A stretch of DNA of 64,000 bases from Gillisia sp. (lineage in GTDB: Bacteria; Bacteroidota; Bacteroidia; Flavobacteriales; Flavobacteriaceae). Shown in pieces: positions 3,296 through 50,372 of this stretch. How positions within the stretch are numbered: position 1 is the first letter of the stretch; every line of letters begins with the position of its first letter. Where the stretch lies: positions 5,157-69,156 of the forward strand of contig JBGTNH010000020.1 of the NCBI GenBank assembly GCA_041743165.1. The letters are read 5' to 3'. The notes under the pieces were generated by a model. The model did not search any database. It was not told the DNA's origin and saw only the letters and a program-made list of their open reading frames with translations. The position numbers were made by a program, and so were the translations under genes.

Positions 3296-3805
3296 TTAAT
3301 TTTGGATTTGACAGCTGCTGAGTCCACAGCTTGAAACGGGTTTTTCCTTTATAATTTCTACTTCAGAATTCTTGCTGTCGCTTCCTGACCATTGTTCCAT
3401 AACTTCAGGTGAAGGCCGGGAATTTATTCCTTCGCCATACACGGTAGCGGTACCATGGGTGTAAAAGGCTTCCCAGTCTACTCCCTGGGGGTCTGTGATC
3501 CAGCTTTTTTGAGATTTGGAATAGCAGCAGGTACATTCGCCCTCCACCCTTATACTGCCTTTGGCCTGTTCCATATTTTGATATACTTCCCGGAGTTCGG
3601 TTTCAGATTCTACCTGCAGACCCAGGTGTTCTATTCCGTTTTCAGCATGACCGGTGGAGATAGCATAATTTATGCGGGGATCTTCAAGCATCCATTTTGC
3701 ATAATCTGGTTTTAAAACGGTTGGCGGCTGGTTAAACAGGGCATTATAAAATGCAAGGCTTTCATTTAGATCCTTAACCCTTACATGTACGTGAAATCTT
3801 TTCAT
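3296..3805 (-). CDS. ArsI/CadI-family VOC metalloenzyme
   Basis: MKRFHVH...DYAKWMLEDPRIN...GIEHLGLQV...TCCYSKSQKSWITDPQGVDWE: family signature with vicinal Cys pair. Confidence 0.88.
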   Translation of the reverse strand: MKRFHVHVRVKDLNESLAFYNALFNQPPTVLKPDYAKWMLEDPRINYAISTGHAENGIEHLGLQVESETELREVYQNMEQAKGSIRVEGECTCCYSKSQKSWITDPQGVDWEAFYTHGTATVYGEGINSRPSPEVMEQWSGSDSKNSEVEIIKEKPVSSCGLSSCQIQN

Positions 3806-3836
3806 TTTGAATATGTTTTTAAGTTTACATATTCAG

Positions 3837-3862
3837 GACGTATGGGGTTCAAAAAAGATGCA
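3837..3862 (-). promoter_or_regulatory. ECF-sigma-type promoter upstream of the arsI-like gene
   Basis: Minus strand TGCATC-TTTTTTGAACCCCATA(16 nt)-CGTC in the 64-bp gap after the ECF gene. Confidence 0.6.
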
Positions 3863-3869
3863 TAATTTT

Positions 3870-4454
3870 TTAAAAAATTTCTTTTTTAATTTTTTGAAGG
3901 GGGGCACAACTTTCTTTTATTTCAAAAGAGAGAAGATTTCCCGTAGAGTCTTTTTCAAAATGACAACATGTAATAAATTCTTCCATAAGAAGCTGTCTGC
4001 CTCTCTGTATACGTGATTTGGTTGCCGGGAGGCTTAGCCCCAGCCGATTTGCAATATCTGCCTGTTTCATTCCTTCTAAATCAGATAATTTCAAAGGGAG
4101 TGAATAAGTCTCGGGAAGAAATTCCAGCATGGGAGTTATGTATTTCACGGCATCATTAAAGGCCAGATTTTCATCTTCTACCGCTTGTTCAGGAACATCC
4201 CTTACAGTGAATTTTGCCTGTTTTCTAAAATGATCAGTTATTGTGTTTTGAGCGATCTGAAACAGCCAGCTGCGCACATTCCTTACGCCGGATTTTGCCT
4301 GGCAGAAATTATAAACCTTGAGCAATACCTCCTGGGAAATATCATTGGCAATATCCTTGTCTTTTACTCTTTTATAAATAAAATTCTTTAGTCCTTTTTG
4401 ATGTTCCAGCCAAAGCCCGGGTACATCACAATTAACATGAGTTTTAAGTTCCAT
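3870..4454 (-). CDS. ECF RNA polymerase sigma factor (SigZ-like) with Cys-rich C-terminus
   Basis: Region 2 (DISQEVLLKV, SWLFQIAQNTITDHFRK), region 4 (GMKQADIANRLGLSLPATKSRIQRGR), tail ITCCHFE...ESC. Confidence 0.88.
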   Translation of the reverse strand: MELKTHVNCDVPGLWLEHQKGLKNFIYKRVKDKDIANDISQEVLLKVYNFCQAKSGVRNVRSWLFQIAQNTITDHFRKQAKFTVRDVPEQAVEDENLAFNDAVKYITPMLEFLPETYSLPLKLSDLEGMKQADIANRLGLSLPATKSRIQRGRQLLMEEFITCCHFEKDSTGNLLSFEIKESCAPLQKIKKEIF

Positions 4455-43639: not shown

Positions 43640-44859
43640 AAACCTTCTTAAAGAATATTGGCCCGGGAGTTTTAGTATCAGCAGCTTTTATTGGCCCCGG
43701 AACAGTTACGGTCTGTACCCTGGCAGGAGTTAACTTTCAATATTCCTTATTATGGGCTTTACTGCTATCAATAATCGCCTGTATCATTTTACAGGAAATG
43801 GCCGCCCGTCTCGGGATTATCGCTCAAAAGGGATTGAGTGAATGTATAAGGGAAGAAATCAAACATCCCGTTACAAGAACTTTAGCGATCATTCTTATAT
43901 TCTCTGCTATTGTAATTGGAAATGCTGCTTATGAAGCAGGTAATATAACCGGTGCTGTATTAGGTATTACAGCTATAGCTCCTTCTCTTAATATTGAAAT
44001 TCAGGGATTTTCTTTGAATTTATGGAGCATTATAATAGGTGCGTTGGCATTTATGTTACTTGCTATTGGAAATTACATAATTCTTGAAAAGGTCTTCATT
44101 GCCCTGGTTTGCCTAATGGGTATTTCTTTTCTGATCACTGCTTTTCTGGTTAAACCAGACTTTGGTGAAGTTTTAAAAGGGCTTTTTATACCTTCTGCCG
44201 GATCGGCTGGTTTGCTTACGGTAATGGCTCTTATAGGCACCACAGTAGTGCCTTACAATCTCTTTCTCCATGCTTCTCTTGTAGGAGAGAAGTGGAAGGA
44301 CCCGGGAGACCTGAGAATAGCCAGAAAAGAGCTTTTAATTACTATTTTATTGGGAGGTCTTATTTCTATGGCTATAGTTATCTCAGCCGCTGTTCCCAAT
44401 TTGTTGAATGTAACTTCTGCAGCAGATCTTGCAGTAGGCCTGGAACCACTGTTTGGGAAATATGCCACCTGGTTCATTGCCCTGGGATTACTTGCTGCCG
44501 GGATCACATCTTCTATTACCGCTCCACTGGCTGCTGCATATGTGGTCAAAGGCTGTATGGGCTGGAAGGGGAGTATGGAATCTTATAAGTTCAAAAGTGT
44601 ATGGGCGGGAATCATTTTATTGGGGGTATTCTTTTCTTCATTAAAACTAAACCCGATTGAATTAATAAAATTTGCTCAGGTAGCAAATGGAATTTTATTG
44701 CCGGTGATAGCTATATTTCTTCTTTGGATCGTTAATAAAAGTTCGGTTCTTGGAGAATACAAAAATACGGTATTACAGAATTCCCTGGGTTTCATAATTG
44801 TCGCCATAACTATCCTGCTTGGTGCCCGTTCTATTTATACGGTGGTTCAAACATTTTAA
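43636..44859 (+). CDS. Nramp-family transporter (YcsG-like)
   Basis: GPGVLVSAAFIGPGT, GNAAYEAGN, GTTVVPYNLFLH; GTG start overlapping the previous stop. Confidence 0.85.
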   Translation: MKTFLKNIGPGVLVSAAFIGPGTVTVCTLAGVNFQYSLLWALLLSIIACIILQEMAARLGIIAQKGLSECIREEIKHPVTRTLAIILIFSAIVIGNAAYEAGNITGAVLGITAIAPSLNIEIQGFSLNLWSIIIGALAFMLLAIGNYIILEKVFIALVCLMGISFLITAFLVKPDFGEVLKGLFIPSAGSAGLLTVMALIGTTVVPYNLFLHASLVGEKWKDPGDLRIARKELLITILLGGLISMAIVISAAVPNLLNVTSAADLAVGLEPLFGKYATWFIALGLLAAGITSSITAPLAAAYVVKGCMGWKGSMESYKFKSVWAGIILLGVFFSSLKLNPIELIKFAQVANGILLPVIAIFLLWIVNKSSVLGEYKNTVLQNSLGFIIVAITILLGARSIYTVVQTF

Positions 44860-44869
44860 AATTTTCATC

Positions 44870-45607
44870 ATGAAGTATATTCACATCAATTGCGATCTTG
44901 GAGAAGGGGGTAACAATGATGCAGAACTTATGGCTTTGGTTTCTGCATGCAATATTGCATGTGGAGGTCATGCCGGAACTTTAGATACTATGAGAGAAAC
45001 TGTGGCCCTTGCTTTGAAACATCATGTTCAGATTGGTGCTCATCCCTCATATCCCGATAAGGAGAATTTTGGCAGGTCATCATTGAAAATGACTCCTGAA
45101 GATCTTAAGAGATCATTGGTTGCACAAATCCTTAGCCTTAAACAAATAACCGAATCTGAAGGTGGAAAACTAAGTCATATTAAACCACATGGTGCACTTT
45201 ATAATGATGCTGCCGCCGATGAAAAAACTGCAGAAATAGTGATTCAGGCTGTAGAGGAATTTGGGGAAGATCTTCATCTTTATGCCCCTCAAAATTCTGT
45301 GATTTCCCGTCTCGCCCAAGGACGAATTAAGGTAGTTTTTGAGGCCTTTGCAGACCGCAGATATGAGACAAATTACCTACTTGTTTCAAGGCAAAAAAAG
45401 GATGCTTTAATTACTCAAAAAGAGGAGGTTTTTAACCATCTTTCTGAGATGTTTTTTAAGGGCGAAATCACCAGTATTAATGGCGAAAAATTAGCCTGCA
45501 ATGCTGCTACTTTTTGTATCCATAGCGATACTCCAAATGCTGTTGAGATATTGCAATTTTTAGAGGAAAAATTGAAAGGAAATAATATTGAAATTTTAAA
45601 GAATTGA
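44870..45607 (+). CDS. pxpA: 5-oxoprolinase subunit A (LamB/YcsF)
   Basis: INCDLGEG, CGGHAG, GAHPSYPD, HIKPHGALYN, CIHSD. Confidence 0.93.
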   Translation: MKYIHINCDLGEGGNNDAELMALVSACNIACGGHAGTLDTMRETVALALKHHVQIGAHPSYPDKENFGRSSLKMTPEDLKRSLVAQILSLKQITESEGGKLSHIKPHGALYNDAAADEKTAEIVIQAVEEFGEDLHLYAPQNSVISRLAQGRIKVVFEAFADRRYETNYLLVSRQKKDALITQKEEVFNHLSEMFFKGEITSINGEKLACNAATFCIHSDTPNAVEILQFLEEKLKGNNIEILKN

Positions 45608-46338
45608 TGGAGAATTTTCCGCATATAAAAGTGATGGGGGAGAGGGCAATTCTCGTTGAATTTTCTCCGGAAATAAGTGAAACTCTGCTTAAAAAGCTTC
45701 TTTTTTATAAAAATTTACTGCAAAAAAATTTTTTTAAACAAAAGGTTGAGGTTATTAACGCATATTCCTCGTTATTAATATATTATCATTATGATATAGA
45801 TAATATCTATAGTGAGGTTTCAAAGGTAAATCGACTTTTTTACAGGGCTAATGTAGACAAAAAATTTAACTCTCATTTATTTTATATACCAGTGTGCTAT
45901 GATCGGGAATTTGGTCTTGATCTGGATTATATTTCCAAAGAGAAAAAGCTTACGAATGAGGAAATTATCAGGCTGCATTCCAACCCAATTTACACGGTTT
46001 ATTTTATTGGTTTTTTACCCGGATTTTTATACCTGGGAGGTCTCGATAAAAAGCTTCATATCTCGCGGAAAAATACACCCAGATCGAGGGTTGAAAAAGG
46101 GGCAGTGGGGATAGGTGAAAATCAGACCGGAATTTATCCAAAATCCAGCCCGGGAGGATGGCAGATAATCGGGAATTCTCCGGTGGAAATGTTTGATAAA
46201 AACAGTGATCCTCCCTGCCCCATAAATGCCGGGGATAAAATAAAATTTCAACCGGTTTCCCGGGATGAATATGAGGTCATAAAAACCCGGGTTAGTCAGG
46301 GTACATTTCAATTAAGAAGGGAGGAATATGAGGGCTGA
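45607..46338 (+). CDS. pxpB: 5-oxoprolinase subunit B
   Basis: IPVCYD, GFLPGFLY, GIYP..SPGGWQIIG. Confidence 0.93.
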   Translation: MENFPHIKVMGERAILVEFSPEISETLLKKLLFYKNLLQKNFFKQKVEVINAYSSLLIYYHYDIDNIYSEVSKVNRLFYRANVDKKFNSHLFYIPVCYDREFGLDLDYISKEKKLTNEEIIRLHSNPIYTVYFIGFLPGFLYLGGLDKKLHISRKNTPRSRVEKGAVGIGENQTGIYPKSSPGGWQIIGNSPVEMFDKNSDPPCPINAGDKIKFQPVSRDEYEVIKTRVSQGTFQLRREEYEG

Positions 46339-47212
46339 AATCGAAGTGCTGAAACCGGGATTGTTTTCCACCATTCAGGATAAGGGCAGGTTTGGATTTA
46401 TGGATTCTGGAGTTCCAACCAGTGGACCTATGGATATGTATGCTTCCCGACTTGGAAATTTGCTTCTCAATAATTCACCGGATAGACCTGTATTGGAAAT
46501 TACCCAAACAGGTCCAACATTAAAATTCTGGTCCCCGGCAAATATTGTGATCACCGGCGGTAATTTATCGCCAATGATTAATGATTCCGAAATTAAAAAT
46601 GGCAGGATCTCCATCTTAAAAAAAGGGGATGTTTTAAGTTTTGGTAAAAGGATTCTTGGTAGCCGGGCTTATGTTTGTATTCAGGGTGGATTTACGGGCA
46701 ATAAAGTTTTGGGTAGTTACAGTTGGTATGATGGATTGACCGAGCATTTTCGGTTGGAAAAAGGCATGAATCTTTATTTGGATTCTGAATTACAAGGGGA
46801 AATTAATACCACCTCCCTGGTAAAGTATAGTGAAAATTATCTCTCTGAGTGTATAGTTACAGTTTATCCGGGACCGGAGTTTTATTCTCTTCCTGGTGTT
46901 ATGCAACAGGAAATTTTGAAGAGGAATTTTACCGTTGATTCAAAAAGTAATCGTATGGCAATTCTGTTTAAAGAAATATTTAAGAATTATATGGAACCTA
47001 TAATTTCGGGACCTGTGATCCCCGGGACTGTTCAATTGACCCCTTCCGGAAAGATGATTATTCTTATGAGGGACTGTCAGACAACAGGCGGATATCCCCG
47101 GGTCTTACAGATAAGTACCAAGGGTCTTAATGTGCTCGCTCAAAAAATGACAGGAGATAAAATAAAATTTCAGTTGGTTGATCCTATTAAAAAAGAAGTG
47201 TCGCCGATATAA
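46328..47212 (+). CDS. pxpC: 5-oxoprolinase subunit C
   Basis: TIQDKGRFG, GPMD, PGTVQL, DCQTTGGYP. Confidence 0.93.
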   Translation: MRAEIEVLKPGLFSTIQDKGRFGFMDSGVPTSGPMDMYASRLGNLLLNNSPDRPVLEITQTGPTLKFWSPANIVITGGNLSPMINDSEIKNGRISILKKGDVLSFGKRILGSRAYVCIQGGFTGNKVLGSYSWYDGLTEHFRLEKGMNLYLDSELQGEINTTSLVKYSENYLSECIVTVYPGPEFYSLPGVMQQEILKRNFTVDSKSNRMAILFKEIFKNYMEPIISGPVIPGTVQLTPSGKMIILMRDCQTTGGYPRVLQISTKGLNVLAQKMTGDKIKFQLVDPIKKEVSPI

Positions 47213-47288
47213 ACGATAGCAGCCCTACCTACTATGTCAACATCTTTGCGACACTTTTTTACCCCTGAAAGGAGTTTATCCAACTTTA
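47189..47288 (-). ncRNA. Predicted ~100-nt small RNA, copy 1
   Basis: Minus-strand promoter (TTG 47323-47321, TAAATTTG 47300-47293); long hairpin AAGUGUCGC/GCGACACUU with apex UAGGUAGGGCUG, then UUCUUUUUU; ends approximate. Confidence 0.5.
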
Positions 47289-47292
47289 AAAC

Positions 47293-47340
47293 CAAATTTA
47301 AGTCTAAATTCACCTCCGGGCAAGGGGATTTTTCCCCTTT
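47293..47340. promoter_or_regulatory. Palindromic operator copy 1 plus divergent sigma70 promoter
   Basis: CAAGGGGATTTTTCCCCTTT at 47321-47340, identical to 48862-48881. Confidence 0.8.
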
Positions 47341-47416
47341 TATTCTATAAATGAATATTTCATTCTGAATTTGTTTATTTTTATTTTATTTAACAAAAAT
47401 TTTAAAATCATAAAAT

Positions 47417-47806
47417 ATGGCGAAACCAGAAAAGTGTATAACAGTTGAAGAAGCCAGAGACCTTCAGAATAATTGGAAAAGGACCCGCGGTAAGGAAATA
47501 GAGAGAGGACAGGGTTATGTAGATACACCTGAATTTTGGTACAGCATTGCTGAACTGGAAGAGTATATAGAGTATGTAAAACTTAAGTCTGGGGAACAAG
47601 GGGTGAATAATCCCGGGTTGCGCATTTATCTTGGAGCCTACCCTTCCCTGGGACAGAAGAAAAGCTTCACTACAATTTTCATAACTCCTACCATGCCGAT
47701 GGGTGATGAGAAAAGCCTGAATGAAAATGAAGGGGAACAAGTAAATAATTATGAGATCGATCCTATTAACGAGAGCCAACAGGGATATCCTCCAATCGAT
47801 TATTAA
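47417..47806 (+). CDS. Small soluble hypothetical protein (129 aa), first gene of the signalling cassette
   Basis: No signal peptide; FWYSIAELEEYI, GLRIYLGAY, TIFITPT, C-terminal N..QQGYPPIDY. Confidence 0.8.
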   Translation: MAKPEKCITVEEARDLQNNWKRTRGKEIERGQGYVDTPEFWYSIAELEEYIEYVKLKSGEQGVNNPGLRIYLGAYPSLGQKKSFTTIFITPTMPMGDEKSLNENEGEQVNNYEIDPINESQQGYPPIDY

Positions 47807-47812
47807 GAAGTT

Positions 47813-48559
47813 TTGTTGCTGGAATATTTTATAAAGAACTCGCTCCTGATGTATCTTCTGGAGATTGGGGCAGCTGTGGCAGGGACGATTTATCTCAACC
47901 GCGCAAAATATCCTGTGCCCTACTCAAAACTTTTTGTGGGATATCTGTGGTTAGTAGTACTTGTAGAAATAATAGGGTATTACCCCACATTTAATTTTTT
48001 CACCCATTTTTCCTACATGCCTTTTGTCGAAGGAACTGTATTCGAAAGAAACTTCTGGCTATATAATTCCTACAACATTGTCAAATTCGCTATTTATTTC
48101 ATCTTTTTTATAGCACAATTACGTAGTAAGAGCAGCATACAGGTTTTCAAGTTGGTCCTGGCAGGCTTTGTAATTACGGCTATTTTAAATCTTATATTTA
48201 CCGATGTTTTTTATACCCGGAGCTCTACATATACCTATATAACCGGTTCCCTTACACTTATGATTTTAATCTTTGTTTATTATATGGAGTTGCTTAGGAG
48301 TGACAGGATATTATTCTTTTATAAAAGTCTTCCCTTTTACATTTCGGTAGGCCTGCTGCTATGGAACGTGACTATAACGCCGCTTTTTATATATAATAAA
48401 TATTTTACCAGTGCGAGTCCGGAATTTGTTAGTTTGCATTCTACTATCCTTAGAGTTTCCAATTTCTTCCTTTACGGAATCTATATAACGGCTTTCATTA
48501 TATGTTCATCGAAGAGTAAAAGTAATTTACTCCCTAGTAATCCATCCGTAAAGGTTTGA
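47813..48559 (+). CDS. Seven-transmembrane protein of unknown function
   Basis: Seven hydrophobic segments counted by eye; TTG start 6 nt after the previous stop; no soluble enzymatic domain. Confidence 0.75.
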   Translation: MLLEYFIKNSLLMYLLEIGAAVAGTIYLNRAKYPVPYSKLFVGYLWLVVLVEIIGYYPTFNFFTHFSYMPFVEGTVFERNFWLYNSYNIVKFAIYFIFFIAQLRSKSSIQVFKLVLAGFVITAILNLIFTDVFYTRSSTYTYITGSLTLMILIFVYYMELLRSDRILFFYKSLPFYISVGLLLWNVTITPLFIYNKYFTSASPEFVSLHSTILRVSNFFLYGIYITAFIICSSKSKSNLLPSNPSVKV

Positions 48560-48728
48560 ATCTTCTAGTAACAGGTAATCCACATAACAAGTCTATTTTG
48601 CTTGACTGTCTTTTATAAAATGATAAAGGATATTAGATAAAAAATATTGGAATATAGATGAGCCGTGATGAGGGTAAAAAGTAAGGATCCTGGCTATAAA
48701 ATAGGGAGTTAGTAAAAGAGCCTGAAAT

Positions 48729-48829
48729 AAAAAAAAGTGCCATTCAGATGTATCTTGTTAACAGCCCTACCTATTATCAATTACCTAAAATGACACTTTT
48801 ACTATAATACTTTATAAAGAAAAATTGAC
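48729..48829 (-). ncRNA. Predicted ~100-nt small RNA, copy 2
   Basis: Minus-strand TTG 48864-48862 and TACTTTTA 48841-48834; hairpin AAAAGUGUCAUU/AAUGGCACUUUU (U.G only on this strand), same apex UAGGUAGGGCUG, U8 tail; ends approximate. Confidence 0.5.
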
Positions 48830-48833
48830 CTGG

Positions 48834-48881
48834 TAAAAGTAGGTTTGAGGTTAATACCAAACAAGGGGATTTTTCCCCTTT
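48834..48881. promoter_or_regulatory. Palindromic operator copy 2 plus divergent promoter
   Basis: CAAGGGGATTTTTCCCCTTT at 48862-48881. Confidence 0.8.
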
Positions 48882-48957: not shown

Positions 48958-49743
48958 ATGCTTGCCAAAGAGGAAATGCTCTTAATTGTTTATTTTACAG
49001 TTGTCATACTCCTTTTGACCGCCTTCGCCATCGTTTTCTTTATTACTTTCCAAAGAAGAAAGAATAAACTGTTAATGGAAAAATTTGAGACCGAAAAAAG
49101 ATTTGAAGAAGAACTTACCCAATCCCGGCTCGAAATTCAGGAACAAACTTTAAAAAATGTTGCGTGGGAGTTGCATGATAATATTGGACAGTTACTTTCT
49201 GTAGCCAATATGCAGCTTAACATGCTTAGCGGTAAAGTGGAGGAATCATCACAGGGCCCGGTACTGGAGATCAGAAACATTGTAGCCAGTTCCCTTCAGG
49301 AAGTCAGGTCCCTTTCAAAATCTCTAAATAATGAAGTCATCGATTATTCCGGTCTTGAAGCTTCAGTTAAAAATGAACTTGATAGATTTACACGACTTAA
49401 TATCCTTGATGCCAGAATGGAAGTGACAGGCGAAAGTTTTGAGATCCACCAAAAAGATGCCATCATTTTATTCAGGATACTTCAGGAATTTTTCAGCAAT
49501 GTCATCAAACATTCCAGGGCCAGCTTACTTAGCGTGAATTTTAAATTTGAAGCGGAACATTTAATTATTAATGCCAGGGATAATGGGGTGGGTTTTGAGG
49601 TGGAGGATGTTCAGAAGAATTCGGGTTTACTCAATATGAAAAGTAGAGCAGAGGTCATAAATACTCAATTTGATCTAACCTCTTCCAAAGATGTAGGAAC
49701 TTCCTTATCTTTATCCTATCCTTTAACTACATGTAAAGAATGA
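48958..49743 (+). CDS. HisKA_3-type histidine kinase, single TM, no sensor domain
   Basis: N-terminal TM, WELHDNIGQ H-box, RILQEFFSNVIKH, DNGVGF, GLLNM. Confidence 0.92.
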   Translation: MLAKEEMLLIVYFTVVILLLTAFAIVFFITFQRRKNKLLMEKFETEKRFEEELTQSRLEIQEQTLKNVAWELHDNIGQLLSVANMQLNMLSGKVEESSQGPVLEIRNIVASSLQEVRSLSKSLNNEVIDYSGLEASVKNELDRFTRLNILDARMEVTGESFEIHQKDAIILFRILQEFFSNVIKHSRASLLSVNFKFEAEHLIINARDNGVGFEVEDVQKNSGLLNMKSRAEVINTQFDLTSSKDVGTSLSLSYPLTTCKE

Positions 49744-50372
49744 GTAAATCTGTCATAATAGTTGATGATCACAATCTTTTTGGCCAATCCCTTAAGGGCT
49801 TGATTGGATCCTTTCCAAATTTTGAAGTCCTGGAAGTCTTCAAAAATGGCGGGGAATTGGTGGATTACTTATCTGCGAATAAAAAACTACCCGATATCAT
49901 TTTATTGGATGTGAGAATGCCTGTGATGAATGGGTTTGAAACCATGGATTGGGTTAGGAAAAATCTGCCGGATCAAAAGGTTCTGGCATTAACGATGGAA
50001 CATGATGAGGAAACCATTATTAAAATGATCAAGGCGGGTTGCAGGGGATATTTGTTAAAGGATATTGAGCCCAACGAATTTTTACTTGCGCTTAATTGTG
50101 TGACCGAGAGTGGATTTTACCTTAATGAAGAATCTTCCATTGCTTCATGTTCTTCTAATAAAGATAAAGTTGAAGAAAAACTTTCCCAAAGAGAATTAGA
50201 ATTCCTCAATTTGGCTTGTAGTGAACTTACCTATAAGCAGGTGGCAGATGAAATGAACCTTAGCCCGAAAACCATAGATGGATATCGGGAAAGTCTTTTC
50301 AATAAACTCCGGGTTCGTAGCAGGGTGGGCCTGGTATTGTATGCTGTAAAAAACAATATGGTAGAAGTTTAA
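49740..50372 (+). CDS. NarL/LuxR-family response regulator
   Basis: IVDDH, LLDVRMPVMNG, LTM, GYLLK, LSQRELEFL...TIDGYRESLFNKL. Confidence 0.95.
   Translation: MSKSVIIVDDHNLFGQSLKGLIGSFPNFEVLEVFKNGGELVDYLSANKKLPDIILLDVRMPVMNGFETMDWVRKNLPDQKVLALTMEHDEETIIKMIKAGCRGYLLKDIEPNEFLLALNCVTESGFYLNEESSIASCSSNKDKVEEKLSQRELEFLNLACSELTYKQVADEMNLSPKTIDGYRESLFNKLRVRSRVGLVLYAVKNNMVEV

Follow-up and report, generated by a model that had tools for sequence, protein, structure and literature searches.

In a 64,000-nucleotide (nt) stretch of DNA (contig JBGTNH010000020.1, positions 5,157 to 69,156; hereafter the window), which comes from a hot-spring metagenome and whose nearest relatives are Gillisia-like Flavobacteriaceae, two units built on a common plan lie beside the genes of a two-component system. 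Copy 1 stands between pxpC and p129, a gene for a conserved protein of 129 amino acids, and copy 2 between the membrane-protein gene m248 and a histidine-kinase gene; all the genes around them lie on the plus strand. The locus raises the question of what these units are: small RNA (sRNA) genes, as an earlier reading of the sequence (the original prediction) had proposed in describing twin minus-strand RNAs activated by a regulator, or terminators, leaders or repetitive elements. From their comparative analysis we consider it likely that each unit is a self-contained minus-strand gene for an sRNA of about 100 nt, which would be switched by the regulator and act in trans.

Two collinear units in the window

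Both units consist of four blocks in matching order and spacing, namely a palindrome, a minus-strand promoter, a long hairpin with CAGCCCTACCTA at its apex, and a U-tract. They can be aligned only within these shared blocks, the intervening sequence being different in copies 1 and 2. Their features are as follows.

47189-47288, minus strand: predicted sRNA gene copy 1 (about 100 nt), start at about 47288, 3' end in the U-tract at 47189-47194
47196-47256, minus strand: terminator hairpin of copy 1, base stem AAGTGTCGC/GCGACACTT
47220-47231: apex 12-mer of copy 1; the hexaloop GUAGGG is the complement of 47223-47228
47189-47197, minus strand: U-tract of copy 1, UUCUUUUUU, 3' of the hairpin
47293-47300, minus strand: -7 box of copy 1, TAAATTTG, a perfect TAnnTTTG, 20 nt past the TTG at 47321-47323
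47322-47339, unstranded: palindromic candidate operator AAGGGG-N6-CCCCTT of copy 1, at -51 to -34 of the sRNA promoter and about -58 of the p129 promoter
48728-48829, minus strand: predicted sRNA gene copy 2 (about 102 nt), start at about 48829, U8 tract at 48729-48736
48733-48800, minus strand: terminator hairpin of copy 2, base stem AAAAGTGCCATT/AATGACACTTTT; C.A oppositions of the plus strand are G.U pairs on the minus strand
48762-48773: apex 12-mer of copy 2; the hexaloop is the complement of 48765-48770
48834-48841, minus strand: -7 box of copy 2, TACTTTTA, 20 nt past the TTG at 48862-48864
48863-48880, unstranded: palindromic candidate operator of copy 2; the histidine-kinase start codon follows 78 nt downstream

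The positions on which the original prediction was built proved exact. Within the window the apex 12-mer has exact matches only at 47220 and 48762 (plus strand), GACACTTTT begins at 47250 and 48792, that is, 30 nt past each 12-mer, and the 20-nt operator block CAAGGGGATTTTTCCCCTTT, 100% identical between the copies, lies at 47321 and 48862. Since the apex blocks are spaced by 1542 nt and the operator blocks by 1541, the 12-mer lies 101 nt (copy 1) and 100 nt (copy 2) to the left of the operator block. This block includes the TTG of the minus-strand promoter, and the identical 20-nt spacing from TTG to -7 box described for the two promoters was likewise found. Chance alone could repeat a 12-mer in 64 kb; four collinear blocks exceed chance. 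Further, the palindrome AAGGGGATTTTTCCCCTT occurs only twice in the window even when up to three mismatches are allowed (0.21 expected), as does the pattern AGGGG-N4-7-CCCCT (0.34 expected).

The outer and inner stems drawn around the apex pair as they had been quoted, and the comparison of predicted folds favours the minus strand in both copies, with the U-tracts next to the hairpin: copy 1 folds with -28.3 kcal/mol on the minus strand versus -20.6 on the plus strand (z-score -5.2), and copy 2 with -22.7 versus -9.9 kcal/mol (z-score -4.3), because the C.A mismatches of the plus strand turn into G.U pairs on the minus strand. For the predicted sRNAs themselves the values are -34.1 kcal/mol (z-score -5.3) for copy 1 and -22.7 kcal/mol (z-score -3.2) for copy 2.

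Distribution of the family in genomes and metagenomes

A set of 80 genome loci was retrieved by p129 homology alone, and the core GCCC[CT]ACCT was found in 26 further copies at 11 of them, with 1-3 copies per locus. The strand of these copies relative to p129 is constant, and they lie 93-136 nt (typically 100-117) from a GGGG-N-CCCC palindrome. Two extra CCCTAC sites, at L016:5313 and L008:77, are not further copies. A covariance model (R1), of the kind that the original prediction had called for, was built from 28 hairpins, the 26 and the two of the window, which it matches at 47189-47261 (minus strand, 60 bits, E-value 3e-10) and 48728-48803 (minus strand, 67 bits, E-value 6.5e-12). R1 added 14 copies in Salegentibacter, Salinimicrobium, Christiangramia and unclassified Flavobacteriaceae, bringing the genome copies to 42; it found no match in Aquimarina, Aequorivita, Marixanthomonas and other genera, although the gene cluster is present there. 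Metagenomes were scanned with the pattern AAGGGG-N5-6-CCCCTTG-N20-TAnnTTTG, which describes the promoter only and is independent of the RNA and of p129. Among the 80 loci returned, 25 carry the sRNA, in 39 copies; one further match is weak and one is truncated.

The family thus amounts to 81 copies, from Gillisia, Antarcticibacterium, Salegentibacter, Salinimicrobium, Christiangramia and metagenomes, with predicted RNA lengths of 92-117 nt and a single copy of 136 nt. The description as twin RNAs holds for the two copies of the window; the family as a whole has 1-3 copies per genome. The unit occurs in tandem runs of as many as three, no gene lying between them, and at L008 and L012 its orientation to p129 is reversed as a whole; both observations indicate an autonomous unit. 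Its distance from p129 in Salegentibacter is 300-1400 nt.

Several copies per locus, some of them in tandem and each with a long inverted repeat, might also mark a small mobile or repetitive element with an incidental hairpin, such as a miniature inverted-repeat transposable element (MITE) or a repetitive extragenic palindromic (REP) sequence. We regard this as extremely unlikely, since all 81 copies lie inside one syntenic cluster and the promoter-only metagenome search found none elsewhere, only two occur in the 64-kb window, those that share a genome have diverged strongly and carry compensatory changes, and each has a complete promoter. The many dispersed, near-identical copies that characterize MITE and REP elements were not found.

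Three side observations were made in these sequences. In Salegentibacter, AAC-rich degenerate tandem repeats with units such as AACCCAC, plus a 35-nt period, lie between the sRNA unit and p129 (L014:3850-3923, and also upstream of p129 in L009, L015 and L017). On four metagenome contigs that lack the p129 cluster (L157:4536-4700, L134, L104 and L147), a matching operator-promoter drives another kind of sRNA-like unit; this is about 110 nt long and combines an internal hairpin, a strong terminator and a segment rich in G, AAUGGGGGU. One near-identical sequence on six metagenome contigs (L093, L100, L115, L130, L139 and L156) carries a similar palindrome-promoter followed by a hairpin-plus-terminator unit of about 70 nt that has no relation to the family; this unit may represent a further small RNA, or it may have matched by chance.

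RNA structure, covariation and strand

The original prediction had staked itself on covariation or loop conservation at homologous loci, and both are present, with strong covariation and an invariant hexaloop in a family of 81 copies. In a sequence-only MAFFT alignment of the 28 hairpins, 84.9% of the stem cells are paired, versus 37-58% with slid partners; changes on both sides occur in 18 of the 25 pairs, and none of 500 shuffles attains any of the five measures used. Among 59 distinct model-aligned sequences, 88.3% of the stem cells are paired, both sides change in 19 of the 25 pairs, and compensation is seen in 152 cells.

All 28 seed copies fold as a long hairpin, nearly all with GURGGG as apical hexaloop (2 of the 28 are slightly different). 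The apex is therefore not invariant over 12 nt, as had been claimed from the two window copies: across the 59 distinct members only G-GURGGG-(C/U), 7-8 nt, is fixed, the closing G-C alternates with G.U, and the next pair outward alternates between A-U and U-A. The apex is a 6-nt loop on a covarying stem.

Three observations place the RNA on the minus strand: G.U occupies 136 cells versus 27 for A.C when the alignment is read on that strand (5:1), the minus strand is the more stable in 26 of the 28 copies, and the newly found members score 25-35 bits more with R1 on it. A plus-strand RNA was considered and ruled out by the G.U asymmetry, together with the lack of a conserved plus-strand promoter upstream of the hairpin.

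Most members have a 5' hairpin, CAUUUUAG-UUAG-CUAAAGUG, followed by a single-stranded UUUUGGGG linker and then the terminator hairpin. Copy 1 of the window retains only the GGGG of the linker, predicted to be locally paired, and copy 2 has neither the 5' hairpin nor the linker GGGG; the window copies have thus diverged in this part, so that the siblings have the terminator loop in common but not their 5' parts. The 5' part of copy 1 (47262-47275, minus strand) contains ACUCCUUUCAGGGGU, a small predicted hairpin that masks the GGGG. A CUCCUUUC stretch, found in copy 1 only, recalls the 3' tail of 16S ribosomal RNA, a likeness that is probably due to chance.

Promoter and palindrome

All 81 copies carry their own conserved minus-strand promoter, TTG-N20-TAnnTTTG, and the palindrome stands upstream of it in 80 copies by regular expression and in degenerate form in the 81st. 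The -7 box lies exactly 20 nt past CCCCTTG in 69 copies, and 11 others are one base off, their palindrome ending in TTT or TTA rather than TTG; the sequence of the 20-nt spacer is not conserved among members. In Flavobacterium psychrophilum, TAnnTTTG is the mapped sigma-A box at -12 to -5 (PMC9723704). Transferred to the window, this placement puts the predicted sRNA starts at about 47288 and 48829 and gives lengths of about 100 and 102 nt, with the palindrome spanning -51 to -34 and centred at -42.5.

The 18-bp palindrome (6-N6-6) overlaps the -33 element. Its GGGG/CCCC arms are invariant save for rare variants, which disrupt the pairing and never compensate for one another, and this behaviour suggests a protein-binding DNA site, not an RNA hairpin. 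A plain RNA hairpin was accordingly rejected as an explanation of the palindrome, whose stem never covaries.

One palindrome may serve both divergent promoters, that of the sRNA and that of p129, whose predicted transcription starts are about 100 bp apart. In 13 of 13 loci where the palindrome abuts p129 (window 47340-47416, L001, L004, L005, L007, L011, L016, L019, L020, L022, L023, L025 and L034), 36-39 nt separate it from the p129 -7 box, the distance in L034 being ambiguous (30 or 40 nt), and the intervening sequence is not conserved.

Other features were noticed upstream of p129. Its 5' untranslated region has a conserved short hairpin, CTTAAC-N6-8-TTAAG, directly after the -7 box (window 47384-47416; L001, L004, L009, L011, L012, L014, L015, L017 and L027). 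In Aquimarina (L029-L078, about 3780-3990), two tandem GGGG-N4-5-CCCC palindromes about 25 bp apart stand upstream of p129 with a conserved block GGTTTTACCGTAA...AAAGGGT...TATTTGTG...TTTTTTGGATATATTAGC, where R1 has no match. In other genera (L028, L054, L055 and L071), palindromes of the type CAGGAAAAACCCTG are found instead.

Association with a two-component system

The proposed link to the regulator is supported by gene order, since the copies sit in one conserved cluster with the kinase and LuxR-type regulator genes, and the palindrome-promoter module drives the operon of this cluster elsewhere. The genes of the window are the following.

44819-47212, plus strand: upstream pxpA/B/C-like operon, pxpC stop codon at 47210-47212
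47376-47383, plus strand: putative -7 box of p129, TATTTTTA
47417-47806, plus strand: p129, 129 amino acids, acidic (isoelectric point 4.6), conserved, divergent from sRNA copy 1
47813-48559, plus strand: m248, membrane protein with at least six hydrophobic segments
48958-49743, plus strand: histidine kinase with one N-terminal membrane helix, HisKA_3 and HATPase_c (Pfam)
49740-50372, plus strand: NarL/LuxR-type response regulator, receiver and GerE helix-turn-helix (Pfam); presumed palindrome binder

The order pxpABC, sRNA, p129, m248, sRNA, kinase, regulator is kept in all sRNA-bearing genome loci, and every metagenome sRNA locus on a sufficiently long contig shares these gene neighbours. 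In twelve other metagenome loci the palindrome-promoter is directly followed, in the same orientation, by distant p129 homologues (29-44% identity), after which come (m248), kinase and regulator genes; in L091 these form a tight four-gene operon under the palindrome-promoter. In other lineages, then, p129 heads the operon driven by the matching operator-promoter.

From this arrangement, the palindrome-promoter is the predicted autoregulatory promoter of the two-component operon in other Bacteroidota, and in the Gillisia-Salegentibacter group the same module appears to have been reversed and duplicated and to have taken on the expression of small RNAs. Because the module drives the regulator's operon in other Bacteroidota, the adjacent regulator itself is what most likely binds the palindrome, a prediction that leans on conserved synteny. 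A NarL/LuxR operator would moreover be expected to be an inverted repeat that keeps its place in the promoter and accompanies the regulator gene from genome to genome, and the palindrome shows these features in genomes and metagenomes.

Neighbouring genes and orientation

The nearest NCBIfam models to the histidine kinase are MctS, UhpB, NarX and LiaS, and those to the response regulator are MctR, NarL and UvrY/GacA, each below its cut-off; the regulator has no AAA+ domain by Pfam. The membrane protein m248 is syntenic throughout the related loci, and Pfam and NCBIfam searches gave no family assignment for it. Likewise, p129 has no match in Pfam, NCBIfam or the PDB; 39 homologues of it were found, and its AlphaFold2 model is poor (predicted local distance difference test 60). 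A second p129 paralogue of 163 amino acids, with an N-terminal signal or membrane segment, occurs at L008:3412-3903 (with an equivalent in L012), 95 nt downstream of a co-oriented sRNA unit, and several distant metagenome homologues resemble lipoproteins; together these indicate that the p129 domain can be exported. As a binding partner of the sRNAs p129 was judged unlikely, given its acidity, its paralogues with signal peptides and the lack of database matches.

The co-oriented units of L008 and L012, upstream of this exported paralogue, recall a cis-acting leader or attenuator of a p129-type gene, or the relic of one, whose terminator would conditionally halt transcription before the coding region; that a matching promoter drives p129-like genes directly in other lineages agrees with such a reading. 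However, the RNA points away from p129 in the window, as it does in the great majority of copies, and leads into a convergent gene or the next sRNA unit (both window RNAs point into convergent genes), no conserved alternative anti-terminator pairing exists, and the L008 paralogue has its own TAnnTTTG box past the terminator. An attenuator fits L008 and L012 only, and as an account of the family it is very unlikely. The combination found here, of a promoter belonging to each copy and an intrinsic terminator on the same strand, in units that in the window and at most loci (L008 and L012 excepted) are not leaders of a downstream same-strand gene, is that expected of independent trans-encoded sRNA genes.

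Proposed function

In the circuit that we propose, the membrane kinase would phosphorylate the LuxR-type regulator, a dimer of which would bind the 6-N6-6 palindrome at -42.5 and switch on sigma-A transcription of each sRNA gene. The position of the site is all that bears on the mode of control, and it suggests class II activation; repression, conceivable because the palindrome also overlaps the -33 TTG, is the less likely alternative. Transcription from TTG-N20-TAnnTTTG would begin at about 47288 and 48829 and stop at the intrinsic terminator, whose unusually long, interrupted stem would display the G-rich hexaloop GURGGG, closed by G-C or G.U. The RNAs would then act in trans through this loop, and through the G-rich linker where present, on C-rich mRNA sites or on a protein, and the p129-proximal palindrome may in addition control the p129 promoter. 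We infer production of the RNAs, binding of the regulator to the palindrome, activation and targets from anatomy and association.

As to the partner, the GURGGG loop and the GGGG linker could be a docking site for an RNA-binding protein that the sRNAs titrate or recruit as the output of the two-component system. The Bacteroidota are not known to have CsrA, Hfq or ProQ. We hold this idea to be doubtful; if true, it would make the system a functional counterpart, in Bacteroidota, of Gac/Rsm-CsrA.

Several points weigh against an sRNA gene. No RNA sequencing run was located that holds the window, Gillisia limnaea or a Tara locus; one run of doubtful RNA type holds a single low-depth contig within m248. 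The original prediction had pointed to loop complements in mRNA leaders, and in neighbouring mRNAs no conservation was found of CCCTAC (CCCUAC), CCTACC or CCCCAAAA. RNAduplex was also run with the complete sRNAs on 75 translation-start regions of the window; this crude scan, in which intramolecular structure is ignored, gave a featureless distribution. The 5' hairpin, 91% paired, covaries only weakly and is absent from both window copies.

The other two points concern termination. The base of the hairpin is symmetric, with an A-run facing a T-run, so that it could also terminate convergent plus-strand genes, among them pxpC in the case of copy 1, which overlaps the pxpC stop codon; and the palindrome with its T-run scores as a short plus-strand terminator. 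One could therefore suppose that no functional RNA is made, that pxpC and m248 simply end in hairpins that serve as bidirectional terminators or insulators, and that the palindrome serves only p129 and the kinase and regulator genes, as an operator or short terminator, which would also agree with its conserved distance to the p129 -7 box. But plain terminators do not hold a hexaloop invariant across genera while their stems covary, and the 136 to 27 ratio of G.U to A.C favours the minus strand. Nor would a terminator account for a minus-strand -7 box that every copy keeps at 20 nt from the palindrome, for tandem triplets without genes needing termination, or for the Salegentibacter unit at its distance from p129. 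We regard terminators without a functional RNA as unlikely.

Comparison with known systems

Searches of Rfam 15 at gathering and permissive (E<=10) thresholds with the window and 7 related loci gave only noise, and in the literature no description of this sRNA family was found, in agreement with the original prediction. Sibling sRNAs under two-component control are a known kind of system; this family of them, carried by marine-type Flavobacteriaceae, is previously undescribed. The likeness to Qrr or RsmY/Z invoked at the outset stands as regards regulatory logic and fails as regards membership.

As in GacS/GacA-RsmX/Y/Z and BarA/UvrY-CsrB/C of Gammaproteobacteria, a NarL/LuxR-family regulator is associated here with several paralogous sRNA genes and an 18-bp 6-N6-6 palindrome, the GacA-type palindrome being TGTAAG-N6-CTTACA versus AAGGGG-N6-CCCCTT in the present family. 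G-rich motifs are likewise displayed in loops. Unlike Rsm/Csr RNAs, whose many GGA motifs titrate CsrA/RsmA, these RNAs have one GURGGG loop, at most one GGGG linker and no GGA, and the palindrome overlaps the -33 element, whereas in Gac/Rsm it lies further upstream. Neither GGA motifs, nor similarity in sequence, nor matches to the Rfam CsrB, RsmY and RsmZ models (E<=10) were found.

The Qrr1-5 RNAs of Vibrio are also sibling sRNAs: a single phosphorylated response regulator drives them all, and a functional segment is conserved among them. They differ in their sigma-54 promoters, the NtrC-type regulator LuxO and dependence on Hfq, compared with a sigma-A TTG/TAnnTTTG promoter and a LuxR/NarL-type regulator here; a -24/-12 promoter, LuxO sites and a match to the Qrr model were all lacking.

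A further parallel is offered by LisRK and LhrC1-5 of Listeria monocytogenes, where sibling sRNAs, partly in tandem, belong to a two-component system; LhrC is induced by LisRK and repeats a short seed motif in a hairpin's loop, a stretch that is single-stranded and the loop of the terminator (PMC5880928). The present family similarly has its G-rich motif in the linker and the terminator loop. These motifs are opposite in base composition to the CU-rich (UCCC) motifs of LhrC, which pair with AG-rich Shine-Dalgarno regions; Bacteroidota are largely without Shine-Dalgarno pairing. LisR is an OmpR-type regulator, of a family other than LuxR/NarL. CU-rich motifs and a match to the Rfam LhrC model were not found, and there is no sequence relation.

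Within Bacteroidota, the closest precedent for multicopy sRNAs is FopS/GibS of Bacteroides thetaiotaomicron, which is unrelated (PMC11697453, PMC7366714). FopS RNAs are dispersed, about 65-70 nt long, with the seed in a single-stranded 5' end and no operator or two-component link defined, and their consensus is deposited in Rfam (PMC11697453). The present RNAs, unlike FopS, cluster beside their presumed regulator and have the terminator loop as conserved element; a 5' seed of the FopS/GibS type and an Rfam 15 match were not found in the window and 7 related loci.

Significance

The sRNA biology of Bacteroidota is thinly mapped, and that of Flavobacteriia hardly at all; our search of the literature turned up no sRNA family there that is connected to a defined two-component system with its operator. 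The locus described here offers a complete predicted circuit, made up of a membrane kinase, a LuxR-type regulator, an 18-bp palindrome at -42.5 and 1-3 sibling sRNAs with an invariant 7-nt loop, and it has cultured carriers in Gillisia, Salegentibacter, Salinimicrobium and Christiangramia. The R1 model and its alignment could seed a new Rfam family. With regard to evolution, the promoter-operator of a p129-m248-kinase-regulator operon would have been re-used, reversed and duplicated, for non-coding RNAs.

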